Origin: Micavibrio sp. UBA2400
Lineage (GTDB): Bacteria; Pseudomonadota; Alphaproteobacteria; UBA2400
Direction: 5' to 3'
Assembly: GCA_002343265.1 (NCBI GenBank)
Contig: DDSC01000038.1
Location: 5,454-69,453, forward strand
Length of the DNA: 64,000 bases
Program-made: the position numbers and the translations under genes
The notes under the pieces: generated by a model
What the model was told of the DNA's origin: nothing
Seen by the model: the letters and a program-made list of their open reading frames with translations, nothing else
Databases searched by the model: none
Part shown: positions 10,723 to 46,475 of the stretch, piece by piece
Numbering within the stretch: position 1 is the stretch's first letter
How the letters are laid out: each line of letters starts with the position of its first letter

Positions 10723-10790
10723 TCTTACAGAGTAGCGGGCAGGGGTTAGAAAGCTGTTAAAAGCTGATTAATATCGTGGCTTATCAAGAC

Positions 10791-11096: not shown

Positions 11097-11131
11097 TGCA
11101 TTTTCCCCTTGTTTTGAGGCATAGCACAGGC

Positions 11132-28621: not shown

Positions 28622-28720
28622 ACCGACTGGTAAGCTCTCCTTTGCAGTATAGTTAAAGCAAGTTAAGCTTGCCAGATTTTAATGATTCGATTTCCCTCAA
28701 ATTGCGGCTATATCAGAGGC

Positions 28721-29131
28721 ATGACGACTCTCGCGCACCTACTTGATGATTTCGAGTTCCTGACGGATTGGGAGGATCGTTATCGCCACCTGATTGAACT
28801 TGGACATACTTTGCCGGGGCTAGCGGAGGACGAGCACACCGAGGCAAATAGGGTCACTGGTTGTATGAGCCAGGTTTGGCTTGTCGCGGATCAGCAGCCG
28901 GATGGACGGTATATTTTTCGGGCGGATAGCGATGGGATCATTGCCAAGGGCCTTATTGCCATTGTGTTGCTCGCCTACTCCGGCAAAACTTCAGCTGAGA
29001 TTGCAGCGGTTGATATTGATACAATCTTCAAACAGCTTGGCCTTGATCAGCACTTGGTCGTCAACCGACGCAATGGATTTTTTGCCATGGTGGCCCGGAT
29101 CAAGGCTTTGGCGCAGGTTCCGGCGCACTAA
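28721..29131 (+). CDS. sufE: SufE-like cysteine desulfuration sulfur acceptor
   Basis: 137 aa from the ATG at 28721. The SufE family motif is 'ANRVTGCMSQVWL' with a conserved Cys. Confidence 0.7.
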   Translation: MTTLAHLLDDFEFLTDWEDRYRHLIELGHTLPGLAEDEHTEANRVTGCMSQVWLVADQQPDGRYIFRADSDGIIAKGLIAIVLLAYSGKTSAEIAAVDIDTIFKQLGLDQHLVVNRRNGFFAMVARIKALAQVPAH

Positions 29132-30113
29132 GCCCCGCTTCAGCCATATACTTGGCAACACCAGCATGGATCGGAATGCCAAAGCCATCCGCCTTCATAT
29201 CAGGCGCAGTAAGACGTGCGAGCGATGGATGCAGGCTGTTAAGGGTAGCCGTGTTACCCAAAACAGCTTTGGCGATACCATAACCCGCTTGGTCCGGTAG
29301 ACGGGTCGTCCCCAGTAATAGCGCTCGTACGCCAAAACTGGGGATATCCGCGCTAATTCCCGTATAGCTGCCACCAGGGATCATGCTTTTGCTGTAAAAC
29401 GGGTTGGTTGTTACCAGCGTGTCAACGGCACGTCCCGTCAGTGGCAGTAAACGGGTCGGACAGCGGCCAAGCGCCTCCTGCACAGCAGCGTTGGGGTGCG
29501 GAACGAGGAAAACAATTGCGTCAACGCGGCCATCGCATAAAGCCGCACTCTGCTCGGCAAAGGGCAGATCAAGGATACTGCCCATTTCATTGATCCCCCA
29601 GTTCAGGGTCGCAAAGACAGCCGTCATGATGGTGCGCGGGCCTGAGGCGGATGGGCCAAGATTGATTTTTTTTCCTTTGAGACCATCCAGATCCTTGATG
29701 TCGCTGTCGGCTTTGACGATCATGGCGAGCAGTTCGCCATGCAAGGCGAGCAGGGTACGCAATTCACTATTAGGCCTCAGAAAGGGGGCCTGTCCGCCTT
29801 TGGCCGCGTAATAAGCCCAATCCGATTGGGCCACCGCGAGGGCGAGGGTACCGCTTTCCAGAGCCTGCAGATTGCTGATTGATCCATTGGTGCTTTCAAT
29901 CGCAAGATGAACGCCAGCTTTCTGATCATTGACCAGACGTTGTACGGCCCCAGCTGCCGGAAAATAGATGCCCGTTACAGCCCCTGTACCAATAACAAGG
30001 GGCTGTGAAATTTCCCTTACGGAAGATTGGGTGGTTTTGGTAATCGGGTTAGCGAAAACTGAGGTTGCCGCTAGTGTTAAGATCAGGGCAATCGCGGGAA
30101 GGCGGGGAAGCAT
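29100..30113 (-). CDS. TAXI-family TRAP transporter solute-binding protein (orphan, no permease adjacent)
   Basis: 337 aa from the ATG at 30111-30113 with a signal peptide 'MLPRLPAIALILTLAATSVFA'. 'VIGTGAVTGIYFPAAGAVQRL' and 'TLALAVAQSDWAYYA' are typical of TAXI/Imp-type binding proteins. The upstream part of the track ORF is spurious. Confidence 0.7.
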   Translation of the reverse strand: MLPRLPAIALILTLAATSVFANPITKTTQSSVREISQPLVIGTGAVTGIYFPAAGAVQRLVNDQKAGVHLAIESTNGSISNLQALESGTLALAVAQSDWAYYAAKGGQAPFLRPNSELRTLLALHGELLAMIVKADSDIKDLDGLKGKKINLGPSASGPRTIMTAVFATLNWGINEMGSILDLPFAEQSAALCDGRVDAIVFLVPHPNAAVQEALGRCPTRLLPLTGRAVDTLVTTNPFYSKSMIPGGSYTGISADIPSFGVRALLLGTTRLPDQAGYGIAKAVLGNTATLNSLHPSLARLTAPDMKADGFGIPIHAGVAKYMAEAGLSAPEPAPKP

Positions 30114-30280
30114 GATTTTTCCTTTGAAATCAGTGGACACGGCAAAATCTGCCGCACTATGGCGGGAGATCGGGGGGAGGTCAATAACCCTGTGCATAAC
30201 CGCGAAATAGACTCGCATTGGCGTAGTCAGCTTGCTAATCTGCGCCACCGATTTTTCACCTGTAGCGGCCGAGGCCAGAC

Positions 30281-33200
30281 ATGACCGAACATCCGGACAC
30301 CCAGACCCTGCATCGCGAGGGTACAACTGAGACGGGGGCTGTTCCGCCCAAGACAGGAGCGCACCCTGTACGGGCAAGTGTCGGAACATCAACCGTTGGT
30401 CGAGCTGGGGCGCCGGTACGAACCTCAGCGCCTGCGCCAGTTCACGCGCTACCCTCGCTTCCGGCTTGGGCGATTGTCGCGTCGGTTGTCTGGGTGGCGG
30501 TTGCCGTTGGTTATCTGTTTGCCGTTGGCGGCTGGTCCTCATCACCGGGGGCAATCGGCGCCATCATTGCCGGTCTGGCCGCGCCACTGGTGGTGGTGTG
30601 GCTGGTGGCGTTCATGCAGCAGCGCGCGCTTGAAGTTGATATCATAACCGGCCCGATCCGCCGTCAGTTGACAGCTCTGCTCTCTCCGGGAGCAGCTGCT
30701 GATGTGCGTATTCGCCGCATTACCGAGGCTTTAGCCGAACAGACCGAAATGTTGCGCAATGCCGCTAACGTGGCGCTTGAAGACTCTAGCGCAGCCATGA
30801 CGGCGATCACTCGTCAAAGTGGTGAGTTGCGCCGGTTGTCCGCTGAAGCCATGCTCGATATCGGTAAGGTCGGTAAAACAGCAGAGCAGACATTAACGCA
30901 TTTGCGCGAAACACTTAGTCATCTTGGCACTCAAACGGGAGATGAACGAGAAAAAGCGCTCAAGATGGTCGCTGAGTTGGAGAAGAATTTTACCAGCGTA
31001 CTGGGGCAACTTGATAAAGTTTCACAGCATTATGAGGGGCGTCTGGGCAAACTGAATGAAACCTCTCTTCAGCTGGAGGATCGCACCAAGTCCTTGATCG
31101 GCCTGACCGATGGTCTTAATGCCAAGGTTGACGATTCCGCTGGTGAAGTGATGGGTGATATTGCCCGCCTTGAATCCGCTGTAGCAGAACTTAGTCAGCG
31201 CAGTGCGGCCATTGCGCACCTGCTAGAACGCCCCGTTGAATCACTGGAACGGGCTGCTGGTCAGCTTGATGGGCAGCTGCGTCAGTCGCATAGCCTGCTG
31301 CAAAGTGCGACCAATAATCTTGAAAAAATTGGTGATGTTGTTATGGGGCGCGCTAACGCACTGGTTGCGAACTTGTCGGATCGCCTCAGCAGCATGGAAC
31401 TCGTTGGTGCTAAGCTAGTTTCTCTAGGTGTAGCGGCGCAAAATGATACAGGCCGGTATGTCGGACAGATCGAAGAAGTGGCGGAGCGGATCCGGGACTA
31501 TGGCGCGGAAAGTGAGCAACGCCTTCGGTCTGTAATTTCCGAACTGACAGCCGCCACTGAGGCTGGGTTAAGTCGTGGCGATGCTGTTATTGACCGATTG
31601 CAGGATGGCACCAATGCTCTCAAGCTGGCGGTTAGTGGGCATGATGATCGCTTTGCCGCGCTGGCCGATGATATCGAAGAGCGCACACAACGACTGCGTG
31701 AGTTAGGGCGCGATGCACGTGGACAGCTGGAAGACGTCCAGCTCTCGCTGTCTTCGGCCCAGGATAGTGTTGAAAGTCAACTTGAACGCCTGAATCATGT
31801 CAGTGACAAGCTGAGTACCGAGCTGCAGCGCAGCGCCAGCAGTGCCTCCACGCTCTCGGAAGCGACCCAGTTGGCGGGCGAGCGGGCACAGGCACTCTTC
31901 AACCTGAATGACAAGACCAGTGATGTCATGAACATGATTGCCGCGCGTTTGGTCGAGCAGCGTGAGGAGGTTGAGGCGCTGGCAGGAAATCTGACAACGC
32001 AGATCGAATCCATGCAGGCGGCACTGGTTAGCCAGCGTATGGAGCTGCAGCGCACCGGGCAGGATGCCAGCCGTCAAAGTGAAGTGGTCCAAGCGGCTCT
32101 GCGCGAGCAGGTCGGGGCGATCGCTGCCGCGGGCATGGATGTTGCTGCCCGTATTGATGTGCTGCAGCAGCGGGTGCGCAACGAAGTGGGCTCGTTGACA
32201 GAACTGGGAGATGTGCTGGAAGGCAAACTGGCAGCGCTGGCGCAGACAGCCCAGCAACAGGCGGGAACTTTTACCACGGCTAATGCGGAGATGAGCCGTG
32301 AGCAGAAGGCTTTGCAGGCGCTGACCGACCGCTCGCGACAGGATTTGACCGGTCTTCTCACGCATCTGAGTGAAACTCGTGCTGCTGCTGAAACGGCACT
32401 CGGAGGAGTAAACGAGCAATTAGTACAGCTTTCGGCCCAGCTTTCGGCTGCCGAGGATGATCTGCATCGTATGGCAGGTGATGTGAGCACCGAGCAGCTC
32501 CGCTTGCGCGATCAAGGTCAGGGTATGAATGAGGCTTTGGCCGCTGCCTTGCAGCGACTGGAGACACTCGACAAATCTCTGCACACCACAGGTGAGCATG
32601 TGGCTCATCAGGGCGATAAGGCCGAGGCACAGCTTGCGCGCGTCCGCACGGAACTGAATAGCAGCCGAGAGCTTTTGGTCGCTGAGAATAGCGAGGTTCA
32701 ATCTCTTCTGACCCAGCTTTATGCGCAAATGCGAGACGGGCAGGAGCAACTGGAGCAAGTAAAAGTAGAAGCGACTGAGGCCAGCCGTCTGTGGGCACTG
32801 GCGCAAAGCCAGTTGCAGCAGAGCCAGTCGGCACTCACGCAGAGCCGTGAGCAGGCTCAGCAGGATATTCGTGCAGTTGACGCCAGCGTCCACGAGGCCA
32901 CACGCTCACTGACGCAGGCTCGTGCCGAAGCGGAATTGGCGCACGAAACTCTACACCAGCAAAGTGAACGGGCGCAGGCACGCATCCATGAGCTTGAGCA
33001 GGATATGGCTTCGTTGCAGGATGTAATTGCTCGCCTCACCGAGCGGTCGGATTTACTCTCGCGGTCGTTGGCTGATCAGGCCGCCCAAGCCGAGATCGCG
33101 GGGGGTCGTCTGCAAAGCGCCACCCGGATTGCCGATCAGTCGGCTGCTGTGTTGGTCGAGCGAAATAAAGACCTGCAAGCGAGTGCCCACGCACAGGAGC

Positions 33201-36200
33201 AAGCCCTTGTTAGTTTGCGCGCCGAGTTGGATCGGGCGAGCGGCGAGCTGGCACAGCGAGGGGAGCTGAGCCAAGAGCGCCTCGAAAGTGTCGTCGCCGC
33301 CATTCTCTCCGCCTCGAGTAACTTGCAAGAACAGACGCGCCAGAGCAGTGCGGCATTGGCACAGGGCGAGCATAACTTTATTGCCGTGCGCAGTGCCTTG
33401 GCGACACACACGGCATCCGTATCGGACGACCTGAGCCGCCTTGGCAGTCAGGTCTCAGATTTGCAAGCTGACCTGACCGCCACGGGACAGCAAGCTCAAT
33501 CGGTCGGAATGCAATTGGCGCACCAGGCTGAGCAGAGTGAGGCGGTCCGTGCCGGTATCGAATCTGTCGCTGCCCGTGCTGATAAGGCTGCTCTGTTGTT
33601 GACAGAACGGCTAAGTGAAATGGATATGGCCTCGACCAGTCAGATGGCCGCGTTTGTACGATTAACCAGTCAACTGGAGCAACTTGGTCAGCAACTTGAG
33701 TCCAGCAGTGACTCAAGTCAGTCGCATCTTCAGGTCTTACTGGCCCAGCTAGCCCAAACAAGCGCAGCGCTCACTGCCAGCAGCCAACAAAATGGCGAGC
33801 TGGTGACTTTGGCTCAGGATCGCCTGCAGGAAAGCGGCTTGGTCCTCGACCGGCAGGCCCAGCAGGTACAGACATATTTGGCAGCTCTGGAAACCCGCAG
33901 CCAGCAGGTTGAAGCGAGTTTGCGCCAGGCCCGTTCACAGGTTGGTGAGCTGACCAGCCAGCTCGAAGCGCAACAGTCGCGTAGTGAGCAGCTGGGCGAA
34001 AGCACAGCCGCTTTGACGCAGAATAGCATATCTGCCCTGAGTGATCTTGAGCAGCGCTATGAACAGATGGAAGCTGCGGCCCGCAGTCAACAAGATGAAG
34101 TACAGCGTCTGACTTTGCAGCTTGAAGATGCCACAGCGTCGTTGCAAGCTGATGCCAGCCGCTCTGCCAAGGCGTTTGAGACCCTGCTGTCAGGTATCGA
34201 GACGATAGCCAACGCGGCTGACCATTCGTTCACATCTGTGTTACAGCAAATGGAGAAGGCTGGCTCGACCCTGCAGCAGCAAGGAACAGTCAGTCGGGAT
34301 GAATTGACCAATCTGCAACTCCAGATTGTTCACGCCACGCAAGAGCTGGCCGAGCAGGTTGAGAGTGCTCAGCAGTCAATCCGCAAGGTGCTCGGCGAAA
34401 ATGGTGCCCGTTTCATGCAGGCATTGCAAGCCGCGCAGGAGGGCTTGAGCGGCCAGCTGGAAAATTCCCGCCAACAGGTCAGCGTATTCCTGACTGAGGC
34501 CAGCAGCCAGTTCTCGTCTACTGCCATGCTAACAGAGCAGAGTTTGGCTACTCGTCTTGGCGATCTCGACTCGATCAAGAGCAAGCTTGAGGCTGTCAGC
34601 CTGAGCGCCGCGCACGGTGTGGATGCGCTGACCAGCAGCAGTAACCGTGCTAGCGAGCAGATGGCTAGCCAGCACGAACACGTTCAGGCTCTGGCCGTTC
34701 AGTCCAGCCAACTGGCAAGCCAGTTGCTAGATGCAATGCAGCAGCTACGCAGCATTGGCGGTGAGCATACTAGCGGACTGGAGCAATTGTCCGGCCAGCT
34801 CAGCGAGCAGTTGGAACAGCTTCGACTAAGTGGCCAGCAGGCGCGCAGTGAGCAAGAACAGCTCTTGGCGCGGACCAGTCAGGCACAGGCTACCGTGAAG
34901 GAAATGTCCGAGCAGATCAGCACGGCCCGCTCTTTGGTTGATGCCGCAGCCGACTATACGGCTGCTCGTCTGGCCGATGTTTCAGCAGACTTTGCCAATC
35001 GTGTGCGCGAAGGCGAGGGCTTGGTTACTACCGCGACAACCCGTTTGCGCGAAGTCGAGCAGCGCATGGCTGAGACCGGCTCCCTCATGGAGCAGCGCCA
35101 AACCGAGTTGCTGGCGTCAACACGTACGATCATGCAGCAGCTGGAGGTGCTCGACAGTGGGTTCCGCACAGCGTTGGGTAACAGCAGCGCGGTTCAGTCG
35201 CAGTTGTCAGCACAAGCGGAGCATAATCAGCGACTGCTCACAGGGTTGACCCAGTTGAGCGAGATGGGCACAGCCTCACTGGAGGAACAGACTCAGCGTC
35301 TGGCACGTCTAGCCCAGCAGGCTGCCAGTGATACCCAGCGTATGCTGGACATGGGTGACCGGATTGAAGGCCAGCAGGCTAGTGTTCGCCAGGAGGCGCA
35401 AGCCGCTGTTACGGTCTTGCAGGCAGTACAAGCCCAGTTACAGCGTGCTGGCCAAGAGGGGAGCGAACAGCTGTCGGCGACCGAGGCGCAACTCAGCGCA
35501 GCTCTGGTCGGCATGATGCAACGTGTACAGGAGCTGGCTGCATCAAATACCGGACTGACCAATCAATTGCGGACATCTATGGGCCAGATGGGGCAAGCCT
35601 TGGTCCTGCTTCAGGACAGCGGGCGCAAGCTGGGAGCTGAGTTGAGTGCGACCGGTGACCAGTTGCAAGGTAAGGCTGCCGGGTTAGTGGTGAGCGGGCA
35701 ACAGCTTGACCGCGAGCTTAAGTCTCGCCTTGAAACCATGCAGGAATCGCAGCGGCGTATTGATGGCATTTATACGCACCTCAGTCAGCGTCTGGCCGAG
35801 CTGGATAGTCGCACCTCACACTATCTGATCGATCTCGATCAGCGTAGTGAATCGTCATTCGCGCGTCTTAATGATGGCGTTAGCAATCTGGAAAAGCTAC
35901 CGGATCGCGTCCAAGAGGCGGAAAGTCTCTTGAGCGCCCAAGTGGATATTGCTCGCCGCGAAATTCTAAGGCTACGTAGCGATCTGGTGGAGCTAGGGCA
36001 GACTGTACTCGCGCAGAGCGATCAGGCAGGAGCTAGTACTGCTCAGGTGTTGGCAAATCTGCAGCAGATGAGTGCGCATAGCCGTGCCATGGCTGAGCAG
36101 ATCGAGGTATCGAGCCAAGGCATGGCTACAGCAGCGCAGTCGGCCTGGCAGACAATTCACGCTGCGGTTAGTGAAAGCACCTCCGGTGTGGCGGGGCTTA

Positions 36201-37741
36201 CAGACCATCTGAAGGGGGCAGAAAACCGGACACAATCGCTGGTCGAACTGGCGCGGAGTGGTGTGGATGGGCTGTTGGATCGTGTCAACGACATGGGTAG
36301 CTTGCTGGATAGCGCTCTGAGCAAGGCGAATGGTGCCTATGCGACTCTGGCTGCAGGCGGGTTGCAGCAGATTGAAACGCTAAGCCAAACTCTGGCGGAT
36401 AACGCCGCGCGGCTCGATCACAGCACAGCGCAAGCGCACGCGCGAATTCAGGAAGCTGATGTCTTGGTGCAGCAGCATCAATCAGCCGTGCAGGGTGTTG
36501 CTGAAGCTATGCTTCCGCAGTTGACCAATGTTCGGCAGGAGTTAGAGCAGATTCGGGAAGGTTTGAGCGGCCTTGATAGTCGGTTGCATTCGCTACCTGC
36601 GTCCTTGGGCGGCCAGCAGCAGCAGCTGGAAAGCTTTACCTCTGCAATCGATCGCACGTTGAATCAAGTTGCGGCGCTGCAGATGCTCTCACGTGATATG
36701 GCGCAAGAGCATTTCGCGCTGGCTGAACAACTGCAATCGCATGAAACAGCACTGACGACTGGCCTCGGCGAGCTTGAACAAAGCCTCACCAAGTTGGATG
36801 CCCAAATTCACTCGGGCGTCGTTAGTCATATGTTGAGCGCGGCAACGCAAGCTCAGGCTGTGGAGCGGACATTGGCGCAACTTCTCAATCAGTCGGCTGG
36901 GCTGGATCAGGCGATTGCCAGCATTCGTCAATCGGTGCTGCGCGAAACACAGACGCTTGAGCAGGCAAAAGATACAGTGGGCAGTGTCGCGCAAAAGGCT
37001 GTGAGTGATCTCCAGGCTGCTGGTTCAGCTCTTGCGGAGAGTTATGGCCAGTTACAGCGTGGCACCCAGCTCTCGCAAACAGGGTTGTTACAGACTCAGG
37101 AAGAAAGCCAGCGCTTGGCTGTGCGTCTTGAGCAGATGCGTACACTGCTCAAAGGACTGACGAGTGCCATCTCGAATGATCTCACCGAATGGCAGACCGA
37201 AATGCGCAAACAACTGACCGGCGTAGCAGCTGACCTTGCTAGTCCGGCCGTACGGGCGCAGTTGCCGCTTCTCTCACCTTCGCCTACGCCTGTGCGTGCC
37301 ACTCTTCCGGCAGCCGGATCCAGCTCGACGCAATTGACAACGGAGGCCTTACAGGCAGTGGCTATTGATCTGTACCGTCTGCTGCGCAATGAGATGCCTG
37401 ATCTTCTTAAGTCCTTACCCACTCCGGCGGCCCGCCGTGCACCTATGGGACCGGGGGAAGCACGGGCATACACCCAGGCCTTACTCGAGGTAACTGGCGC
37501 GCCGTTTGCCACGGCAGCAAAGCAGCTTTATGCAAACAACGCTGAGTTCCGCTTGTATGTTGATCGCTATTTAACCCGCTTTGAGGCACATTACGACGTT
37601 TTGGCCCGTAACCCGGCAGGCCTAGACGAAGCGAAGGCCTATCGGGCCTCAGATGTCGGACGCCTCTATAGCCTGTTCAGTGGAGCGATTGAGCGTCGCG
37701 GGAATGTAAGCGCAGGGCAGCCGGAGAGCAGCCGTACATGA
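30281..37741 (+). CDS. Giant (2486 aa) inner-membrane-anchored coiled-coil protein: two N-terminal TM helices followed by about 2300 aa of Q/A/L/E/S-rich predicted coiled coil and a short non-repetitive C-terminal domain
   Basis: A single uninterrupted 7.46-kb ORF; every antisense ORF across it is short. The TM hairpin is 'LPAWAIVASVVWVAVAVGYLFAVGG' then 'AIGAIIAGLAAPLVVVWLVAFMQ'. The rest is a heptad-like pattern rich in Gln, Ala, Leu, Glu and Ser with no enzymatic motif. There is no MCP signalling-domain motif. The stop overlaps the next ATG as ATGA. Confidence 0.8.
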   Translation: MTEHPDTQTLHREGTTETGAVPPKTGAHPVRASVGTSTVGRAGAPVRTSAPAPVHALPSLPAWAIVASVVWVAVAVGYLFAVGGWSSSPGAIGAIIAGLAAPLVVVWLVAFMQQRALEVDIITGPIRRQLTALLSPGAAADVRIRRITEALAEQTEMLRNAANVALEDSSAAMTAITRQSGELRRLSAEAMLDIGKVGKTAEQTLTHLRETLSHLGTQTGDEREKALKMVAELEKNFTSVLGQLDKVSQHYEGRLGKLNETSLQLEDRTKSLIGLTDGLNAKVDDSAGEVMGDIARLESAVAELSQRSAAIAHLLERPVESLERAAGQLDGQLRQSHSLLQSATNNLEKIGDVVMGRANALVANLSDRLSSMELVGAKLVSLGVAAQNDTGRYVGQIEEVAERIRDYGAESEQRLRSVISELTAATEAGLSRGDAVIDRLQDGTNALKLAVSGHDDRFAALADDIEERTQRLRELGRDARGQLEDVQLSLSSAQDSVESQLERLNHVSDKLSTELQRSASSASTLSEATQLAGERAQALFNLNDKTSDVMNMIAARLVEQREEVEALAGNLTTQIESMQAALVSQRMELQRTGQDASRQSEVVQAALREQVGAIAAAGMDVAARIDVLQQRVRNEVGSLTELGDVLEGKLAALAQTAQQQAGTFTTANAEMSREQKALQALTDRSRQDLTGLLTHLSETRAAAETALGGVNEQLVQLSAQLSAAEDDLHRMAGDVSTEQLRLRDQGQGMNEALAAALQRLETLDKSLHTTGEHVAHQGDKAEAQLARVRTELNSSRELLVAENSEVQSLLTQLYAQMRDGQEQLEQVKVEATEASRLWALAQSQLQQSQSALTQSREQAQQDIRAVDASVHEATRSLTQARAEAELAHETLHQQSERAQARIHELEQDMASLQDVIARLTERSDLLSRSLADQAAQAEIAGGRLQSATRIADQSAAVLVERNKDLQASAHAQEQALVSLRAELDRASGELAQRGELSQERLESVVAAILSASSNLQEQTRQSSAALAQGEHNFIAVRSALATHTASVSDDLSRLGSQVSDLQADLTATGQQAQSVGMQLAHQAEQSEAVRAGIESVAARADKAALLLTERLSEMDMASTSQMAAFVRLTSQLEQLGQQLESSSDSSQSHLQVLLAQLAQTSAALTASSQQNGELVTLAQDRLQESGLVLDRQAQQVQTYLAALETRSQQVEASLRQARSQVGELTSQLEAQQSRSEQLGESTAALTQNSISALSDLEQRYEQMEAAARSQQDEVQRLTLQLEDATASLQADASRSAKAFETLLSGIETIANAADHSFTSVLQQMEKAGSTLQQQGTVSRDELTNLQLQIVHATQELAEQVESAQQSIRKVLGENGARFMQALQAAQEGLSGQLENSRQQVSVFLTEASSQFSSTAMLTEQSLATRLGDLDSIKSKLEAVSLSAAHGVDALTSSSNRASEQMASQHEHVQALAVQSSQLASQLLDAMQQLRSIGGEHTSGLEQLSGQLSEQLEQLRLSGQQARSEQEQLLARTSQAQATVKEMSEQISTARSLVDAAADYTAARLADVSADFANRVREGEGLVTTATTRLREVEQRMAETGSLMEQRQTELLASTRTIMQQLEVLDSGFRTALGNSSAVQSQLSAQAEHNQRLLTGLTQLSEMGTASLEEQTQRLARLAQQAASDTQRMLDMGDRIEGQQASVRQEAQAAVTVLQAVQAQLQRAGQEGSEQLSATEAQLSAALVGMMQRVQELAASNTGLTNQLRTSMGQMGQALVLLQDSGRKLGAELSATGDQLQGKAAGLVVSGQQLDRELKSRLETMQESQRRIDGIYTHLSQRLAELDSRTSHYLIDLDQRSESSFARLNDGVSNLEKLPDRVQEAESLLSAQVDIARREILRLRSDLVELGQTVLAQSDQAGASTAQVLANLQQMSAHSRAMAEQIEVSSQGMATAAQSAWQTIHAAVSESTSGVAGLTDHLKGAENRTQSLVELARSGVDGLLDRVNDMGSLLDSALSKANGAYATLAAGGLQQIETLSQTLADNAARLDHSTAQAHARIQEADVLVQQHQSAVQGVAEAMLPQLTNVRQELEQIREGLSGLDSRLHSLPASLGGQQQQLESFTSAIDRTLNQVAALQMLSRDMAQEHFALAEQLQSHETALTTGLGELEQSLTKLDAQIHSGVVSHMLSAATQAQAVERTLAQLLNQSAGLDQAIASIRQSVLRETQTLEQAKDTVGSVAQKAVSDLQAAGSALAESYGQLQRGTQLSQTGLLQTQEESQRLAVRLEQMRTLLKGLTSAISNDLTEWQTEMRKQLTGVAADLASPAVRAQLPLLSPSPTPVRATLPAAGSSSTQLTTEALQAVAIDLYRLLRNEMPDLLKSLPTPAARRAPMGPGEARAYTQALLEVTGAPFATAAKQLYANNAEFRLYVDRYLTRFEAHYDVLARNPAGLDEAKAYRASDVGRLYSLFSGAIERRGNVSAGQPESSRT

Positions 37742-38814
37742 TGCATTGTCTTTACCTGACATTGGTACTTGTACTGCTGGCTCCCCCTGTTTGGGCGTGT
37801 AGTTGTCCGGATATCCCGCTCGCGGACAAGGTCAAGGCAGCGAGTTTCATATTTCAAGGTACTGTTGTTTATCCGCGACCGGATATGCCGCCTGAACAGA
37901 CATCGTTTCGGATTGATGCCCATCTGAAAGGGCGGGACGGTGCGTCGGCGAATATTCTTCGGCTATCTGTACATTCGCCCCCGGCTTGCGCCGCGACGTT
38001 CGAGCTGGGCAAGACGTATCTTGTCCTAGCCGAGGGGACTTATGAAAGCGGCTATACAACGGATGCCTGTCATAGTTTTCCAGCACAGATAACAGATGAC
38101 CCGCGAGCGCTTGAGGTGCGTGATTTACGCCTCAAGACAGGTCAATCCATTCTTCACGGAAATCAGATCGAAGTTCCTCAGTCCCGCCTCACACTTGAAA
38201 AAATCCGGACACAGGCGAAGACCTTCTACTTGCTTGATGATAACGAATTGGCTTTACGTCTTTACGTCACCGCTGCGGCGCGGTCCCACAACTCGCCTGT
38301 TGATTTATTGGGTCAGGGTCATGCTTACTTGCGTCTTATGATGGCAGATTTGGCGTTGCAGAGATTTGATGATGTGCTGGAAAAAGATAGCCAGCGGGCG
38401 CAGGCGTGGTCTGGACGCTATCAGGCACTCGCGCTGCTTGGTCGTTGGTCGGAGATCCCTGAGAAAGCGAATCTTTCCGGCCTGTGGCTTCGGTATGCCC
38501 GCATACCAGTAGTTCCAGTTGCTGCTGATTTCTCGACAGTCTGGTGGAGAGAAATTGATGCTGCCGGGTTGCACTTTAAGGATGTTTCGTTCCGCGGTGC
38601 GACGTTATCCGATGTAAATTTCTCTAAAAGCAACTTAGAGAATGTGGACTTCACGGAGGCTGTTTTGCACCGCGTCGATTTTTCAGGAGCTAAGCTCAGC
38701 GGTGTAAAATTGCCAAGCAATCTGAATACAATTATCTGGGACGAGACGACGCAGTGGCCAAAGGGCTTCGACCCGGCTATTCTGGCCATTAGCAGGCCGA
38801 GTCAGGCTAAGTAG
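37738..38814 (+). CDS. Secreted protein with an N-terminal TIMP/NTR-like domain, a central helical region and C-terminal pentapeptide repeats
   Basis: The signal peptide 'MMHCLYLTLVLVLLAPPVWA' is followed by a mature N-terminus 'CSCPDIPLADKVKAASFIFQGTVV'. Further Cys residues sit at mature positions about 64 ('PPACAATF') and about 91 ('TTDACHSFPA'), reproducing the TIMP N-domain C1-C70/C3-C99 disulfide spacing and the 'TCSFVAP' motif. C-terminal tandem pentapeptide repeats are 'LHFKDVSFRGATLSDVNFSKSNLENVDFTEAVLHRVDFSGAKLSGVKL'. Confidence 0.6.
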   Translation: MMHCLYLTLVLVLLAPPVWACSCPDIPLADKVKAASFIFQGTVVYPRPDMPPEQTSFRIDAHLKGRDGASANILRLSVHSPPACAATFELGKTYLVLAEGTYESGYTTDACHSFPAQITDDPRALEVRDLRLKTGQSILHGNQIEVPQSRLTLEKIRTQAKTFYLLDDNELALRLYVTAAARSHNSPVDLLGQGHAYLRLMMADLALQRFDDVLEKDSQRAQAWSGRYQALALLGRWSEIPEKANLSGLWLRYARIPVVPVAADFSTVWWREIDAAGLHFKDVSFRGATLSDVNFSKSNLENVDFTEAVLHRVDFSGAKLSGVKLPSNLNTIIWDETTQWPKGFDPAILAISRPSQAK

Positions 38815-38840
38815 CTCTTTGACGTCTGGAGTGCCCACTC

Positions 38841-39851
38841 ATGTCGATAACCCAAAAAATTCTGATGGGCCTACTGACTTGTGCCCTTCTGGCTGGGCTT
38901 TGGTATAGCTACGTCATGGCCATCCCGCGTGTAGCGGTAACACAGGTTGTACGCGGGTCGGCTGTTGAATTGGTGTATGCTACAGGAACAGTTGAACCTG
39001 CGGTTCAGGCCACGGTGTCCCCTGAAGTTAATGGGCGTATTGCAGAGTTCTATGCCCAAGAAAACGATATTGTTAACCTTGGTGGGCCGTTGGCTCGCCT
39101 ATTTGACGCGGAGCAGTACGCCGAAGTGTCAGAGTTGATGATCCGTGTGGCCAATGAAGAAACCGCTCTGCGGCGCGATGAAGATCTGCTCAAGCGAAAA
39201 GTCGGCAGCCGCGAGGAGTATGATAACTCAAAGTCTGCACTTGAGCAGTCAAAGGCTCGCTTGGCCGCCGCTCAAGTGCGCTTGCAACAGAGGACGTTAC
39301 GTTCTCCGATTTCTGGTGTTGTTCTCCGTCGTGATCATGAAATAGGCGAAACTGTAACGCCCGGTATGCGCTTGTTTGTGGTGGGACAGCTAAAGCCATT
39401 GCGCGTTACTATGGAGATCGATGAGGAAGATATTCCTCGTGTGCAGATCGGACAAAAAGTCTTATTAAGCAACGATGCCTTTCCGGAGCAGGTTTTTACA
39501 GCTGCCGTGAGTGAGATCACGCCTTTAGGTGACAGCAGTAGCAAAACTTACCGCGTGCGTGCGCAGTTGCCGGAAGAGACGGTATTGCCGGTTGGGATGT
39601 CAGTAGAGGCTAATGTTGTTTTAACAGAGAGAACGAATGCTTTGCTTATACCGGCAACCGCTATGCAGGATAGTCATGTCTATCTTGTGGGGTCCGATCA
39701 CCGCGTTAAAAAAGTATCTATAAAAGTAGGCTTAAGTGGAATTGAAAATATTGAGGTAATTCAAGGCCTGTCTGATGGGGATCTCATTGTGAGAGGGCCA
39801 TCTGTAGATCTGCGGGATGGGCAGCGTGTGAAAGTACGCCGGGAGCCATGA
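38841..39851 (+). CDS. HlyD/MacA/DevB-family periplasmic adaptor (membrane fusion protein)
   Basis: 336 aa with an N-terminal TM anchor, coiled-coil hairpin, lipoyl and beta-barrel segments ('VSPEVNGRIAEF', 'LRSPISGVVLRRDHEIGETVTPG'). A CTGGAG RBS is present. The stop overlaps the next ATG. Confidence 0.8.
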   Translation: MSITQKILMGLLTCALLAGLWYSYVMAIPRVAVTQVVRGSAVELVYATGTVEPAVQATVSPEVNGRIAEFYAQENDIVNLGGPLARLFDAEQYAEVSELMIRVANEETALRRDEDLLKRKVGSREEYDNSKSALEQSKARLAAAQVRLQQRTLRSPISGVVLRRDHEIGETVTPGMRLFVVGQLKPLRVTMEIDEEDIPRVQIGQKVLLSNDAFPEQVFTAAVSEITPLGDSSSKTYRVRAQLPEETVLPVGMSVEANVVLTERTNALLIPATAMQDSHVYLVGSDHRVKKVSIKVGLSGIENIEVIQGLSDGDLIVRGPSVDLRDGQRVKVRREP

Positions 39852-41098
39852 TCCTCCCGCTTGCCGCCCGTATTGCCTTTCGTCATCTGGTCTACCGTAA
39901 GAGGCAATCTCTTGTCTCCATCCTTGGTGTTGCTTTGGGGGTCGGTTTCTTTATTGCCCTCGCGGCCATGATGCAGGGGTTTCAAAGCTATTTTTTACAA
40001 ACTGTGGTCGATGTCTCGCCCCATATAATAATTAATGATGATTATCGGGCCCCGCTTCGGCAACCTGCTGAGGTGCACTATCCAGCAGCCATCTTGACTA
40101 TTCATGGCTTGAAGCCGAAGGAGGAACGACGGGGTATTCGTGGCTATGAGGCAATCACGAATTATCTACATGGGCTGCCCGGGATTCAGGTTTCACAAGC
40201 TTTGGAAGGACAGATTTTTCTGACTTTTGGCAGCACGGATCGCAATGCAACAGTGCAAGGCATTGTTCCGGCCGATGAGCGTCGGGTTATTAAGCTGGAT
40301 GATGATCTGATTGCAGGAAGCTTCGATAATCTTGAAACAGTTCCCAATGGGATTATCGTTGGTATCGGACTGGCGGAGCGTCTTGGGGCTGGCATGGGAG
40401 ACCGCCTGACTGCTGTATCGACATCCGGCGTCATAATGCAGGTCAAGATCGTTGGGCTCATTGAGACGGGTATTACCGCCATAGATCGCGGCCGTGCCTA
40501 CATGTTGCTCAAAAAAGTCCAGGTTTTACAAGGACTGAATAACCGGGTAAGTCGGATCAACATTCGGTTACCCGACCCCGAGAGAGCACAGGATTTAGCC
40601 TCCCAACTTGAGCAGAAATTCCGCTATCGAGCGGAGAGCTGGCAGGAGGCCAATGCCGGCATATTCGGTGTGTTTGTTGTTCAGAACATCGTCATGTACT
40701 CGACGGTTACAGCGATCATGATCGTGGCGGCCTTTGGTATATTTAATATCATTTCGACGATTATCCATGAAAAAGTCAAGGATATCGCCATTTTACGGTC
40801 GCTTGGCTTTTACGAAAAAGACATCCGGGCAATCTTTATTCTGCAGGGTGTCGCTTTAGGTTTGCTTGGCGCACTGCTGGGTTGGTTGGTCGGGTATGGT
40901 CTTACATCGGCGCTGGCCGCAGTTCGTGTAAATATCAAAGGCGAGATTAAAACCGACCATCTAATGATTCTCTGGTCTTTTAATCACTATCTCTTGGCGG
41001 CTCTGTTTTCCCTTGCCGCGGCAATAGTGGCAGCGTGGATACCCGCGCGCAAGGCGGCATCAGTGCAGCCGGTTGAGATCATCCGGGGTGTTTCATGA
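39848..41098 (+). CDS. ABC transporter permease, FtsX/MacB/DevC/LolC-like (4 TM with large periplasmic domain)
   Basis: 416 aa with an N-terminal TM 'LVSILGVALGVGFFIALAAMMQGFQSY', a roughly 220-aa periplasmic domain and three C-terminal TM helices with the FtsX-like motif region. ATGA coupling occurs at both ends. Confidence 0.8.
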   Translation: MILPLAARIAFRHLVYRKRQSLVSILGVALGVGFFIALAAMMQGFQSYFLQTVVDVSPHIIINDDYRAPLRQPAEVHYPAAILTIHGLKPKEERRGIRGYEAITNYLHGLPGIQVSQALEGQIFLTFGSTDRNATVQGIVPADERRVIKLDDDLIAGSFDNLETVPNGIIVGIGLAERLGAGMGDRLTAVSTSGVIMQVKIVGLIETGITAIDRGRAYMLLKKVQVLQGLNNRVSRINIRLPDPERAQDLASQLEQKFRYRAESWQEANAGIFGVFVVQNIVMYSTVTAIMIVAAFGIFNIISTIIHEKVKDIAILRSLGFYEKDIRAIFILQGVALGLLGALLGWLVGYGLTSALAAVRVNIKGEIKTDHLMILWSFNHYLLAALFSLAAAIVAAWIPARKAASVQPVEIIRGVS

Positions 41099-41766
41099 GT
41101 ACGCTACTGGAGGCACGAGGGCTTACCCGTATCATAGAGGGCGAGGTCTCGACCACCTTGATTGAGGATATTAGTTTTTCCATAGCATCTGGAGAATTTG
41201 TATCTGTAACGGGGCCTTCTGGTGGGGGCAAGTCATCCTTGCTATATTTGTTGGGTCTGATTGACCGGCCAACACGAGGTACCGTCCTGATAGAGGGGCT
41301 GGATACCGGCACGCTGGAAAGTGATGCGCTGGCACATTTACGCCTGACAACTCTTGGTTTTGTGTTTCAGTTTCATTTTTTGCTAGAAGAATTCACAGCA
41401 TTAGATAACGTTATGCTGCCCATGCGCAAGTTGGGGGTTCTGTCTAATCAGGCTATGATTGAGCGCGCATCGGAGCTGCTTGCTCAGTTCGATCTGGCGC
41501 CACACATTCATAAACGCCCCGGCCAGCTCTCTGGCGGACAGCGACAACGGGTCGCTATTGCGCGGGCACTCGCCAATCAGCCCAAACTGATTCTGGCGGA
41601 TGAACCGACTGGCAATTTGGATACCCGCAATGCAGACAGTGTCTTTGCAGCCTTTCGCGATATCGTAAATAATTTTAACGCTTCTGTTATGGTCGTGACT
41701 CACGACCCCGATCTAGCCGCAAGGGCAGACCGGCACCTGAAGATCATTGATGGCCATCTCGCCTGA
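41095..41766 (+). CDS. ABC transporter ATP-binding protein (MacB/LolD/DevA-type)
   Basis: 223 aa with Walker A 'GPSGGGKSS', the ABC signature 'LSGGQRQRVAIARAL' and Walker B 'LILADEPTGNLD'. Confidence 0.85.
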   Translation: MSTLLEARGLTRIIEGEVSTTLIEDISFSIASGEFVSVTGPSGGGKSSLLYLLGLIDRPTRGTVLIEGLDTGTLESDALAHLRLTTLGFVFQFHFLLEEFTALDNVMLPMRKLGVLSNQAMIERASELLAQFDLAPHIHKRPGQLSGGQRQRVAIARALANQPKLILADEPTGNLDTRNADSVFAAFRDIVNNFNASVMVVTHDPDLAARADRHLKIIDGHLA

Positions 41767-41814: not shown

Positions 41815-42138
41815 ATGACTGATGATCCAAACAAAATCCGCCAGCAGCGCATGCTGTTCGACCAGATTGATCAGGCAATCGGCGAAACCAATCGTGATGT
41901 CATTCACGGCCTTATTCCTAAACTGGATAAGGCGGTTTTCCTGAAAATGGCCAAAGGTGTCGCCCAATTGCGCGTGAAGTACATCGCTGCAGGCATTCAG
42001 CTCGCACAGACGGACGGCCTTAAGGAGCCACAGTTGCAGCAGCTTAAGAGCCTGCGGGAGCAATTTGAGGAGGCCCGCGCTGCGTTTGATGCCGTTAAAC
42101 GCGCTGTGAGCCGTGGCTATATCGATATCTCGGAGTAG
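41815..42138 (+). CDS. Hypothetical small helical cytoplasmic protein immediately downstream of the ABC operon
   Basis: 107 aa with a strong CAGGAGG RBS and no family assignment. Confidence 0.45.
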   Translation: MTDDPNKIRQQRMLFDQIDQAIGETNRDVIHGLIPKLDKAVFLKMAKGVAQLRVKYIAAGIQLAQTDGLKEPQLQQLKSLREQFEEARAAFDAVKRAVSRGYIDISE

Positions 42139-44804: not shown

Positions 44805-45710
44805 TTAGCGCCGCCGTGCCGCCAGCCAGCCGCGAAAATGGGCCAGAATTCGCGCGCGGCGCGATGTCCTGAGGTATCGCCTAAGGGGGTCATGCTGTCT
44901 CAATTGCGATAGTTGATAGTTGGCGAGGTATAGCAGGCGTGTGGCTTCTCCCACCATTCGAGGGTCAGCTAGCTGTTGCGGTAAATCGCGGGCGACATGC
45001 AAAAGCTGTTCGGTACGATCGAGAACGCGCTGAATGACGGCACGCACTGCCGGGCTACTCTTGCGTTCAACCAGTTGCTCGGGCGTACCGCCCGCCTCGG
45101 TGAACCAGTCCGTTGGCAGATAGCAGCGCCCATGTAACCGCCAATCCTGCCCGCAGCGCCGGGTCAGGCGCAGCAGGAGCAGACTAGCACACAGTGCATC
45201 CGTCGATCGCTGTAGCTCGGGCTGCTCAAGGTGATGCAATTGCAAAATGGCGCGGCCAATTGGCTCAGCGGCGTAGCGGCAGTAAAGCAGCAGATCTGGC
45301 CATGTGGCGCAGACTGGTCGGCTGATATCCCGTCGCGCTGCTTGCACAAGGCGCAGAGCCCACTGCGGATCTAGCCGCCCTTGTGCCTGTATCCGGAGCA
45401 GACGCAAAGCAGCAAGAGTAAAGACGGTTGGTTCCTGATCACCCGCCGGGAGCGATCCACCTAAAGCCAGTTCAATCCGCTCCAATAGGAAACCACGTGT
45501 TTCCTCTACAAAATCTGGTATGTCGGCGATGTGGCGGATCGCAGCCAGTGTATCAAAAAAGATCTGGATATCTGGGCGAACAAAGGGGGCGAAGAAGGAG
45601 GAAGCCACCAGTCCCGAAAAGGCCGAGTGATGAGCCGGGACAGCGATCTGTCGACTCGTTGCCGCAGACTGAAGTTTTGTAGTCGGAACAGGGGGTTGCT
45701 CTCGATTCAT
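44805..45710 (-). CDS. Squalene/phytoene synthase-fold (SQS_PSY family) protein with degenerate Asp-rich motifs
   Basis: 301 aa. 'YCRYAAEPIGR' matches the YxYxVAGxVG motif and 'RLHGRCYLP' matches the GRxYLP motif. The first DDxxD motif is reduced to 'RHIAD' and the second Asp-rich motif is absent, so the protein is probably non-catalytic. Confidence 0.55.
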   Translation of the reverse strand: MNREQPPVPTTKLQSAATSRQIAVPAHHSAFSGLVASSFFAPFVRPDIQIFFDTLAAIRHIADIPDFVEETRGFLLERIELALGGSLPAGDQEPTVFTLAALRLLRIQAQGRLDPQWALRLVQAARRDISRPVCATWPDLLLYCRYAAEPIGRAILQLHHLEQPELQRSTDALCASLLLLRLTRRCGQDWRLHGRCYLPTDWFTEAGGTPEQLVERKSSPAVRAVIQRVLDRTEQLLHVARDLPQQLADPRMVGEATRLLYLANYQLSQLRQHDPLRRYLRTSRRARILAHFRGWLAARRR

Positions 45711-46475
45711 TGCGGCATAATATGTCAGAAATTCCAGACTGGCGAGGTTATTATCTTACAGATATTCCAGCATATTCGCGATTATTGCCGTCATAGCGAC
45801 TCGGAGTCTTTTCTGGCTGCGCTTTTTCTGCCGGATCCCGGGCGCCATTATGTCTTTACTCTTATCGCACTTAACCATGAGCTAGCCGAAATAGCCAAGA
45901 AAGTTTATGAGCCGTTATTAGCGCAAATGCGCTTGCAATGGTGGCGGGAGCAACTGGAGGCCGGGGCACGGTCCAATTCTCCTGTTGTGCAGGCACTACA
46001 GGCTACAATCGAAGCACAGCCGCTCTCTCGTGAGTTGTTTTTGACGTTGATCGACGCCTATGGCTCAGCCTATACAGACGCCGTTCAGGATATAAGTTCT
46101 GATGATTTTTCTGCCATTCGCCAAGCCTATTGGTATTGCAAACTGGGTTTGGTAGGCCAAGCTTACACACCACAGATTAGCGATCTAATACAGCAGGCGA
46201 TCAGACTGGAATGCTGGGAGCGCAGTTGTTTGTCTGATATGGCGAGTATCCCAACTTCTATGGAGATTGAGGCTGAGCGGAATAAAGCGCGGCAACTCTT
46301 TCGGTACGCGCATAAAGCTGGATTCGGCCCACTCTTTGCTGATTTGGTTCTTCTGCGCTTACGTCTTGGGCAGTTACTGTCACCAAAGTGGCGAAAATGC
46401 CAGTCTGGCCAGCTATCCCCGAAGCAGCATCCGTGGCGTGGAGTCGCGCTGGTCTATGAATTAATACTGCGTTAG
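45696..46475 (+). CDS. Squalene/phytoene synthase-fold protein, NDUFAF6-like (second, divergently transcribed paralogue); start codon unresolved
   Basis: 'DYCRHSDSESFLAALFLP', 'RLQWWREQL' and 'YWYCKLGLVGQ' match conserved SQS_PSY/NDUFAF6 blocks. Asp-rich motifs are absent ('NHELAE' where ADDIxD is expected). The only upstream ATG (45722) is in the +2 frame. The in-frame TTG at 45696 was used provisionally, so a frameshift or non-canonical start is possible. Confidence 0.5.
   Translation: MLSIHCGIICQKFQTGEVIILQIFQHIRDYCRHSDSESFLAALFLPDPGRHYVFTLIALNHELAEIAKKVYEPLLAQMRLQWWREQLEAGARSNSPVVQALQATIEAQPLSRELFLTLIDAYGSAYTDAVQDISSDDFSAIRQAYWYCKLGLVGQAYTPQISDLIQQAIRLECWERSCLSDMASIPTSMEIEAERNKARQLFRYAHKAGFGPLFADLVLLRLRLGQLLSPKWRKCQSGQLSPKQHPWRGVALVYELILR

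Follow-up and report, generated by a model that had tools for sequence, protein, structure and literature searches.

The five linked genes at 30281-41766 of the window (the whole 64,000-nucleotide stretch of Micavibrio sp. UBA2400 DNA that was analysed) probably represent two unrelated units lying side by side: a GPR/RgsE-type scaffold with a periplasmic partner (30281-38814), and a MacB-type exporter cassette (38841-41766). The first two genes form a conserved, translationally coupled pair and the exporter is a separate unit. The sequence places the giant protein encoded by the first gene in the GPR/RgsE family of Alphaproteobacteria, as a remote member with homology at both ends. What the analysis shows directly is the structure of the genes, their homology, the predicted folds and the conservation of the neighbourhood.

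The five co-directional ORFs with three ATGA stop/start overlaps (at 37738, 39848 and 41095) that the initial annotation described are present in the window sequence. They are genuine genes and not chance ORFs, since identical calls were obtained on independent metagenome contigs and diverged homologues of all of them occur elsewhere. Together with two neighbours given for context, they are:

28682-29131, + strand: SufE gene (PF02657), a conserved upstream neighbour of the giant gene (context only)
30281-37741, + strand: giant gene, 2486 aa, a GPR/RgsE-family protein, membrane-anchored and predicted cytoplasmic
37738-38814, + strand: partner gene, 358 aa, a predicted periplasmic NTR/TIMP-like, TPR and pentapeptide-repeat protein
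38841-39851, + strand: adaptor (membrane fusion protein) gene, 336 aa, outside the conserved giant and partner module
39848-41098, + strand: MacB-type permease gene, 416 aa, type VII ABC with four TM segments
41095-41766, + strand: ABC ATPase gene, 223 aa, resembling LolD and the MacB nucleotide-binding domain (MacB-NBD)
41815-42138, + strand: 107-aa ORF downstream of the exporter (context only)

SufE lies 5' of the giant in the window and in loci L004, L007, L010, L011, L043, L044, L046 and L047, and the surroundings of the giant are of a housekeeping kind (SufE, NusB, NrdR, SHMT, GAPDH). The relatives of the giant gene come from Micavibrio-like MAGs, two of them labelled Micavibrio or Bdellovibrionales. 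A Pfam search with the 107-aa ORF gave no match; its counterpart in L003 (89% identity) stands directly after the partner gene, and a 45% homologue follows the exporter triad in L021.

The partner gene was found directly 3' of the giant gene in 10 of the 11 lineages carrying a giant homologue, at a spacing of -4 to +14 nt, and this adjacency stays while the flanking genes vary from lineage to lineage. In a search of 5.8 billion proteins, the full-length partner homologues all adjoin a giant wherever context was examined. One lineage, L011, has a giant and lacks the partner; there the next genes are ftsE-ftsX, and FtsEX likewise belongs to the MacB class of ABC systems, although its family and gene order differ from those of the triad. 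The notion that the partner is a stable neighbour of the giant gene with no functional connection to it could draw on L011 and on the different compartments predicted for the two products. We regard it as very unlikely, as the overlapping or near-abutting codons persist despite changing flanks and a divergence of the partners to 28-44% identity across lineages, and the association of full-length partners with giants argues against it as well.

The same neighbourhood comparison, which the initial annotation had proposed as a check on a five-gene system, separates the exporter from the pair. The triad follows the pair in the window's own lineage alone (1 of 11) and is absent from all 10 other giant loci, among them L003, the closest syntenic relative, which matches the window on both sides. 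Conversely, the triad occurs as a three-gene cassette of the same gene order in 29 other metagenome loci, and neither giant nor partner stands upstream of it in the about a dozen loci with at least 1.2 kb of sequence before the adaptor gene. Upstream of the adaptor gene in L018 and L020 there is no abutting co-directional ORF, and the closest long ORFs on that side overlap one another on both strands. Since the pair occurs in other lineages without the triad, and triad relatives are never found beside the pair, we reject the five-gene unit; homologues of the giant and TIMP-like genes next to these ABC genes, on which that proposal depended, did not appear at any of the 10 other giant loci. It is thus highly improbable that the five genes are one system whose exporter would work for the giant scaffold or carry the TIMP-like protein through the outer membrane. 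Such a system would find some support in the co-directional order, in a partner-to-adaptor gap of only 26 nt (38815-38840) that holds a Shine-Dalgarno-like GGAG and no terminator-like hairpin, in the MacB-class FtsEX behind the giant of L011, and in the predicted periplasmic location of the partner, MacB-type pumps such as MacAB-TolC taking their substrates from the periplasm. The partner, however, has its own Sec signal peptide and, folded at 36 kDa, lies far above known MacAB substrates, the triad is a complete cassette on its own, and no outer-membrane factor gene adjoins it. Since the short gap lacks a terminator, co-transcription is allowed and read-through from the partner into the triad is possible in this genome, although it would be a lineage-specific juxtaposition and not a conserved system.

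The exporter genes on their own appear, from profile matches, to be an ordinary and self-contained MacB-type tripartite cassette comprising permease, ATPase and adaptor. The adaptor matches HlyD_D23 (PF16576) and TIGR01730, both above cut-off and the latter at 201 bits against a cut-off of 94.9, and its relatives in the PDB are MacA and RND adaptors. The permease matches the MacB_PCD periplasmic domain (PF12704) and FtsX (PF02687) above their cut-offs and resembles LolC/E/F, with LolF, LolE and LolC as the nearest solved structures; the ATPase matches ABC_tran (PF00005), also above cut-off. The earlier assignment to a MacB/DevBCA-class tripartite ABC exporter in adaptor-permease-ATPase order is therefore borne out by Pfam and NCBIfam profiles at the level of the class, while the specific models of its members are all missed. 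For DevBCA/HgdBCD the scores were 57.8 against 129 (DevB), 16.8 against 290 (DevC) and 168 against 295.8 (DevA); for MacAB, the permease and ATPase reached 25.6 and 193 bits with MacB (cut-off 966) and the adaptor 42.8 with MacA (cut-off 342). The permease scored 180 bits with the lolCE model TIGR02212 (cut-off 362) and the ATPase 238 bits with the LolD model TIGR02211 (cut-off 307.75); on these sub-cut-off scores, and given the presence of an adaptor, the triad was rejected as the organism's Lol system. Horizontal insertion was also considered on compositional grounds and set aside, there being no clear GC break (0.49-0.53 versus 0.51-0.54 downstream).

The giant protein is organised as follows:

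30458-30616, + strand: TM hairpin, TM1 at about aa 60-82, loop GGWSSSPGA, TM2 at about aa 90-112
30578-31480, + strand: juxtamembrane region (aa 100-400), the best-conserved part of the giant among Micavibrio-like homologues
30689-37243, + strand: predicted helical rod (aa 137-2321), nearly proline-free, rich in Ala, Gln, Leu and Ser, with a 25-residue (7-turn) hydrophobic periodicity
37244-37309, + strand: proline-rich linker (aa 2322-2343), placed by its proline positions
37328-37705, + strand: C-terminal helical domain (aa 2350-2475), conserved, the family signature

Arg and Lys residues flank the hairpin on both sides and are lacking from its loop, which predicts a cytoplasmic position for both termini. 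The hairpin alignment among giants has a conserved P-x-A-x-G-G and AP..(V/I)WL pattern. Homologues in the 10 other lineages measure 1934-2389 aa and giants are 28-51% identical among lineages. Taken in 50-residue bins, identity to the window giant over aa 100-400 extends to 46-73% of the other 11 giants, with conservation peaks of 63-73% at aa 101-200 and 301-400, compared with 2-30% in the central rod. Sequence searches of the PDB with the juxtamembrane region (aa 100-400) found no relative of solved structure, and with the C-terminal domain profile nothing; Pfam returned noise only for 25 C-terminal domains of the family. With just four prolines in its 2185 residues, a power spectrum peak at 3.56 residues, a strong amphipathic periodicity and an autocorrelation at lag 25 (z=14.9) still present at lags 50, 75 and 100, the rod is predicted to contain more than 1700 residues of continuous alpha-helix. 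Its family matches are limited to sub-threshold SMC and apolipoprotein hits, and an SMC/Rad50 identity was rejected, as these are coiled-coil noise and the protein is without an ATPase head.

A membrane-anchored, helical giant agrees with the initial annotation. It is not a protein of an unknown kind: its TM hairpin and C-terminal domain relate it to the growth-pole ring protein GPR (Atu1348) of A. tumefaciens and to the rhizobial growth-and-septation protein RgsE (SMc00190) of S. meliloti. A family search with the C-terminal domain included a protein (P0041) matching a 2089-aa 'kinesin' gene of S. meliloti, and 2089 aa is the reported length of RgsE, which is 42% identical to GPR (PMC7327166). 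When aligned by hhalign, the C-terminal domain of the giants matched the RgsE C-terminus at 97.7% (E 1.7e-12, 112 columns), and the N-terminal profile matched RgsE at 86% (E 4.8e-6). In BLASTP of the window giant against RgsE, the C-terminal domain reached E 1e-8 and the hairpin E 8e-7; composition could have inflated the hairpin match. Homology to RgsE is limited to the two ends of the giant, where about 90 and 112 columns align with roughly 30% identity. RgsE was verified by PhoA fusions to be cytoplasmic and membrane-anchored (PMC7327166), and by analogy we infer the same topology for the giant. In GPR, two N-terminal TM segments are followed by a continuous helix of great length and by a proline-rich region ahead of the C-terminus, which is needed for function (PMC8262873).

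The partner is made up of these parts:

37738-37797, + strand: signal peptide (aa 1-20), predicted cleavage VWA|CSC, with Cys as the first mature residue
37798-38097, + strand: predicted NTR/TIMP-like OB-fold domain (aa 21-120), with Cys21, Cys23, Cys84 and Cys111
38182-38436, + strand: TPR-like helical region (aa 149-233), with the partner's best-conserved motif, FDDVLEKD..AW.GRY.AL
38470-38727, + strand: pentapeptide-repeat right-handed beta-helix (aa 245-330), PF00805

These features agree with the earlier description of the second gene as encoding a TIMP-like/pentapeptide periplasmic protein. Its tandem A(D/N)LXX repeats match PF00805 at 50.7 bits (cut-off 20.2), as expected for a right-handed beta-helix, and the N-domain is predicted to be NTR/TIMP-like, an OB-type beta-barrel with flanking helices; neither Pfam TIMP (PF00965) nor NTR (PF01759) matches the partner at E<=0.01. 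Signal peptides are present in all 10 of the 10 orthologues. A CxC at the predicted mature +1 position occurs in six of these and a single Cys behind an extension in three. An N-terminal extension in TIMPs abolishes inhibition. No candidate protease gene occurs in the conserved neighbourhood, and the TPR region matched nothing in the rhizobial replicons of PLSDB (e.g., RgsF). Only the Micavibrio-like subfamily has the partner; short or apolipoprotein-type family members are without it.

From these data we infer a localisation, an assembly, a giant-partner contact and perhaps a peptidase inhibition. The N-terminal TM hairpin would anchor the giant in the inner membrane, leaving the rod of about 2200 residues and the C-terminal helical domain in the cytoplasm, and by analogy with GPR/RgsE the giant would most likely assemble with itself into a scaffold at the membrane, with a role in organising envelope growth or a cell pole. 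The partner would be exported by Sec into the periplasm, where its NTR/TIMP-like domain with a free N-terminal Cys, its TPR helices and its pentapeptide beta-helix may act as interaction modules. Giant and partner are presumably made in fixed proportion and placed on opposite faces of one membrane site. With the giant cytoplasmic and the partner periplasmic, any direct contact is limited to a loop of about 8-13 residues. The two proteins could be linked via this conserved hairpin loop or via shared partners, e.g., Tol-Pal or enzymes of the cell wall. A possible target of the NTR domain, for binding or inhibition, is a periplasmic zinc peptidase. The homology to GPR/RgsE fits the initial guess of a polarity or cytoskeletal scaffold, the accompanying idea of an exporter dedicated to that scaffold having fallen with the five-gene system.

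Whether shared ends mean a shared role deserves consideration. In the probably predatory Micavibrio-like bacteria, a giant sharing only its end-domains with GPR/RgsE could have taken on another role as a membrane tether or ruler, a lipid- or membrane-remodelling coat, or a part of a prey-attachment pole, with the partner acting on the prey or envelope side. We think this rather unlikely, though several observations lean towards it. As the rod is different in kind from that of RgsE and is without above-threshold apolipoprotein matches, function may have diverged; the partner is confined to the Micavibrio-like subfamily and is missing from S. meliloti; and two relatives carry Micavibrio or Bdellovibrionales labels. 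Krol et al. noted that orders with distant RgsE homologues had no other Rgs proteins and suggested a different role there. Against it, the conserved ends are the likeliest carriers of function, as the essential C-terminus of GPR illustrates, the giant resides among housekeeping genes and not among genes of predation or secretion, and there is no direct evidence for an alternative role. A bolder extension of the scaffold reading, a two-sided polar module in which a cytoplasmic GPR-like scaffold is joined to a periplasmic TIMP-type regulator whose free N-terminal Cys would either chelate and inhibit a zinc peptidase or position it, we hold to be clearly unlikely as it stands. That peptidase could be a peptidoglycan endopeptidase of the M23/M15 type (RgsM, for example) or a protease directed at prey. 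If true, TIMP-like control of envelope growth or of predation would be seen for the first time in a Gram-negative bacterium, and there would be a mechanistic way into the question of how scaffolds of the GPR family act on the far side of the membrane.

Under the preferred reading of two separate units, the locus reveals a diverged GPR/RgsE branch in Micavibrio-like bacteria, whose gene is coupled in 10 of 11 lineages to that of a single secreted protein of three domains, and this secreted partner is previously undescribed for a scaffold of the family. Our literature search found no earlier description of Micavibrio with polar growth or of RgsE with pentapeptide repeat proteins, and Micavibrio-like bacteria are not known for polar growth. 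GPR/RgsE proteins are very large and difficult to work with, and studies of them have so far been confined to Rhizobiales that grow from a pole. The partner is a concrete and testable candidate, and suggests that such a scaffold communicates with the periplasm. That the ends are conserved while the period of the rod differs suggests that the ends carry the function and that the rod serves as a spacer. The ABC exporter next to the pair can be dropped as a false lead.

Among known systems, the triad was compared with its relatives in the type VII ABC superfamily, namely MacAB-TolC, DevBCA/HgdBCD, YknXYZ and LolCDE/LolDF. In common with this group it has a permease of four TM helices with a MacB-type periplasmic domain, alongside a separate ATPase and a periplasmic adaptor. 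Its adaptor-permease-ATPase order is that of devBCA, and of the DevBCA characters this order alone is matched. In MacB the ATPase is fused to the permease, whereas here it is a separate gene, and Lol systems are without an adaptor, in contrast to the adaptor gene that is translationally coupled upstream in the triad. Set against the TIMP/NTR modules N-TIMP-3, TIMP-1, the PCOLCE NTR and the agrin laminin-binding domain, the partner differs in being bacterial and predicted periplasmic, and in having its domain fused to TPR and pentapeptide domains. Its pentapeptide kin include the lumenal or periplasmic Rfr proteins of cyanobacteria and At2g44920; the array of the partner is short and placed at the C-terminus of a three-domain protein.

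TipN, the new-pole marker of Caulobacter crescentus, has two N-terminal TM helices and a long cytoplasmic coiled coil, and the giant resembles it in this layout of TM helices and rod. With about 880-890 aa, TipN is by far the smaller protein, and its layout is also that of short members (670-900 aa) of the family defined by the C-terminal domain. The closest counterparts are GPR and RgsE. Compared with these, the giant is of similar size (2486 aa versus 2115 and 2089 aa, respectively), is found in a Micavibrio-like host rather than in Rhizobiales, and has a coupled gene for a periplasmic partner, whereas S. meliloti rgsE is without such a downstream gene. The hydrophobic period of its rod is 25, in contrast to the apolipoprotein-type peaks at 11, 22 and 33 in RgsE, and while multiple apolipoprotein A1/A4/E domains (PF01442) extend over most of a GPR/RgsE protein, the giant has one sub-threshold match (17.4 bits, cut-off 90). 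Common to all three are two N-terminal TM helices, a predicted cytoplasmic helix of about 1700-2200 residues, a stretch rich in proline and, at the C-terminus, a conserved domain some 120 residues long.

The five co-directional open reading frames (ORFs) described in the initial annotation are present on the forward strand, together with all three of its ATGA stop/start overlaps, at 37738, 39848 and 41095:

30281-37741, + strand, giant gene (2486 aa)
37738-38814, + strand, partner gene (358 aa)
38841-39851, + strand, adaptor gene (336 aa)
39848-41098, + strand, permease gene (416 aa)
41095-41766, + strand, ABC ATPase gene (223 aa)

The partner and adaptor genes are separated by a 26-nt spacer containing GGAG and no terminator-like hairpin. 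The window is part of a metagenome-assembled chromosome, its proteins are also called on JGI and Logan contigs, and the genes around the five ORFs are housekeeping genes (class II RNR, SHMT, NusB, SufE, GAPDH, SOD, UvrA, GyrA). SufE was seen 5' of the giant gene in every locus with a readable upstream flank, and a divergent NMT1_3 (TAXI/TRAP-type solute-binding) gene lies between the two in the window and in L010, L043, L044 and L046; NMT1_3 is also the upstream neighbour of the giant in L003. The SufE-to-giant stretch of the window is 28682-30248; here the longest NMT1_3 ORF (29100-30554) overlaps the giant's start, and gene callers place the NMT1_3 start at 30248 or 30113. Elsewhere in the window, the class II (B12-dependent) ribonucleotide reductase (4429-8259, - strand, 1275 aa, with a TSCPD domain) has its barrel matched in two stretches and carries within the barrel region a stray TACO1/YebC_N-like match at aa 345-406, which may be an insertion. 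A 785-aa protein whose N-terminal domain is TadE/G-like (Flp pilus assembly) is encoded at 20094-22451, and a 668-aa protein with only a weak, sub-threshold protein-kinase match at 14094-16103.

That the giant, the TIMP-like gene and the adaptor-permease-ATPase triad act as one five-gene unit is contradicted by the comparison of loci that the initial annotation itself named as refuting: among the loci compared, the triad lies 3' of the giant-partner pair in the window only. Locus L003 has in common with the window the order NMT1_3, giant, partner, 107-aa ORF, GAPDH, SOD, SQS_PSY, with flanking genes 80-91% identical, and despite this synteny has no triad. Relatives of the triad in adaptor-permease-ATPase order were found at 29 metagenome loci, and tblastn gave no match to giant or partner upstream in the ~12 of these with at least 1.2 kb 5' of the adaptor gene. 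A homologue of the 107-aa ORF follows the triad in L021, and GAPDH is nearby in L014 and L023, so the triad associates, if with anything, with its downstream neighbourhood. The 107-aa ORF itself (window 41815-42138; L003 10721-11062; L021 2614-2859) has no Pfam match. Its L003 counterpart, directly 3' of the partner and behind a promoter-like TTGACA-17-TAAGAT, shows 89% conservation, and the homologue 3' of the triad in L021 is at 45%; the ORF may have a link to the triad or to GAPDH. Further downstream in the window (44805-46475) are two divergently oriented squalene/phytoene-synthase-family (SQS_PSY) genes, and in L003 an amine-oxidase-type FAD protein is encoded ~3.8 kb past SQS_PSY with three other genes between; these resemble an HpnCDE-type squalene synthesis set.

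The adaptor matches TIGR01730 at 201 bits and has MacA and RND adaptors as solved relatives, the permease has MacB_PCD and FtsX domains with LolF, LolE and LolC as nearest solved relatives, and gene 5 encodes an ABC ATPase. Scores fell below every NCBIfam cut-off for LolCE, LolD, DevB, DevC, DevA, MacA and MacB. Judged by sequence, the triad is of the MacB-type (type VII) class, outside its named families; as an exporter it is an ordinary representative of a class that is very common, and it forms a separate cassette.

The pair is by comparison well conserved. Partner homologues are rare, with five full-length clusters among 5.8 billion proteins, and all those whose context was examined lie directly 3' of a gene for a giant of 2258-2389 aa. 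Six further long giants, from a MAG labelled Micavibrio sp. (L010) and five metagenome contigs (L043-L047), have a pentapeptide gene immediately downstream in every case (6/6). Overall the pair is kept in 10 of 11 lineages, at a giant-partner spacing of -4 to +14 nt, with giants 28-51% and partners 28-44% identical. Only L011, a MAG labelled Bdellovibrionales, departs from this: downstream of its giant come a 130-aa ORF and next ftsE-ftsX-plsC-xerD, with no pentapeptide partner; NCBI taxonomy still places Micavibrio under Bdellovibrionales. At this locus (10583-12551) the 130-aa ORF is low-complexity with a signal anchor, ftsE and ftsX encode 226 and 300 aa, and the last two genes are plsC-like and xerD-like; FtsEX is likewise a MacB-class ABC system, though its family and gene order differ from those of the window triad. 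The partner is absent beside S. meliloti rgsE and beside shorter family members. All relatives of the window genes are from metagenome contigs or MAGs, and their 'Micavibrio-like' assignment rests on two labelled MAGs plus synteny.

The giant has two hydrophobic segments (~aa 60-82 and 90-112), after which there are four prolines in 2185 residues, then a proline-rich linker (aa 2322-2343) and a C-terminal domain of ~125 residues. Pfam and NCBIfam gave sub-threshold coiled-coil noise only (SMC, Rad50, apolipoprotein and ATG17 models), with no above-threshold Pfam apolipoprotein domain. All Micavibrio-like giants tested (the window giant, at 30689-37243, with L003, L004, L010, L011 and P0025) show a repeat in the helical rod, with a hydrophobic autocorrelation peak at lag 25 (z 10-15) and echoes at 50, 75 and 100; seven turns per repeat gives 25/7 = 3.57 residues per turn. 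Conservation among giants is highest in the membrane-proximal aa 100-400, the centre (aa 1000-1450) being variable. The C-terminal domain is modelled as a helical bundle (pLDDT 84), and has no Pfam family and no informative PDB relative by structure or sequence. A word-indexed protein search missed two parts of the giant, the identical database protein included; empty results from such an index are unreliable for low-complexity helical proteins. The family was recovered by exhaustive HMMER search with the C-terminal domain, giving 38 representative clusters ranging from fragments to 3840 aa. The domain is at the protein's C-terminus in 36 of these and internal or fragmentary in 2; the full-length members, 13 proteins that end in the domain and have one or more hydrophobic segments near the N-terminus, all fall within 670-2486 aa.

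Using tblastn with a short family member, P0041, against PLSDB, which includes some mislabelled rhizobial chromosomes, we arrived at an S. meliloti gene of 2089 aa that carries the annotation 'kinesin'. The replicon, CP090106.1, is 3.7 Mb and labelled 'plasmid pSymB', yet carries the chromosomal folP, petA-cytochrome bc1 and rgsE, the last being the gene annotated 'kinesin'. The adjacent cytochrome bc1 genes fit the locus number SMc00190. The giants' C-terminal domain, as an 11-sequence profile, aligns with the RgsE C-terminus by hhalign (97.7%, E 1.7e-12, 112 columns), and their hairpin plus juxtamembrane profile does so with RgsE at 86% (E 4.8e-6); BLASTP of the window giant against RgsE gave E 1e-8 for the C-terminal domain and E 8e-7 for the transmembrane hairpin. 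On this sequence evidence the giant can be placed in the known GPR/RgsE family as a new and distant member, with homology confined to the protein ends. Krol et al. give RgsE a length of 2,089 aa and 42% identity with GPR of A. tumefaciens, and had previously reported remote homologues from Emcibacterales and Rhodospirillales (PMC7327166).

For the partner, signal peptide cleavage is predicted at VWA|CSC, and both signal peptide and conserved Cys residues are found in all orthologues. The AlphaFold model, built on six homologues, has three domains (pLDDT 77), and the pentapeptide repeats match PF00805 above threshold. The Pfam TIMP and NTR profiles do not match, and the 'TIMP-like' call made from the CSC motif is upheld as a predicted fold. 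The predicted mature NTR domain starts exactly at Cys-x-Cys in six of the ten orthologues, as it does in TIMPs, an analogy which suggests that it might bind or inhibit a periplasmic zinc peptidase. Three of the ten carry just one Cys, preceded by an extension, and a TIMP-like Cys-x-Cys mechanism therefore cannot be general.

The analysis itself shows how the genes are built, what they are homologous to, which folds they are predicted to have and how far their neighbourhood is conserved; beyond this, we propose the following arrangement. The giant would be held by its hairpin with both termini cytoplasmic and, like GPR/RgsE, probably forms a membrane-associated scaffold organising envelope growth or the pole. 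For RgsE, cytoplasmic location and membrane anchoring were shown by PhoA fusions, and it interacts with TolQ, RgsA and RgsS (PMC7327166). The partner, given the signal peptide and conserved Cys residues of all orthologues, would be exported and reside in the periplasm; translational coupling would imply that the two are made in fixed proportion, and any contact across the membrane would have to run through the hairpin's short, conserved loop or through partners that both have in common. The ABC exporter is removed from this picture.

The pair gives the GPR/RgsE scaffold family a candidate partner that is open to experiment. Within the searchable literature we met no earlier account of the NTR-TPR-pentapeptide partner. 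GPR combines two N-terminal transmembrane helices with an uninterrupted helix of ~1700 residues, a proline-rich stretch and a C-terminus that it needs for function (Zupan et al., PMC8262873), a layout that the window giant matches. The rod period is 25 in the Micavibrio-like giants, whereas the RgsE rod peaks at lags 11, 22 and 33, and the family has kept its ends and changed the repeat type of its rod. Unlike S. meliloti rgsE, the window giant is accompanied by a gene for a periplasmic NTR-TPR-pentapeptide partner.
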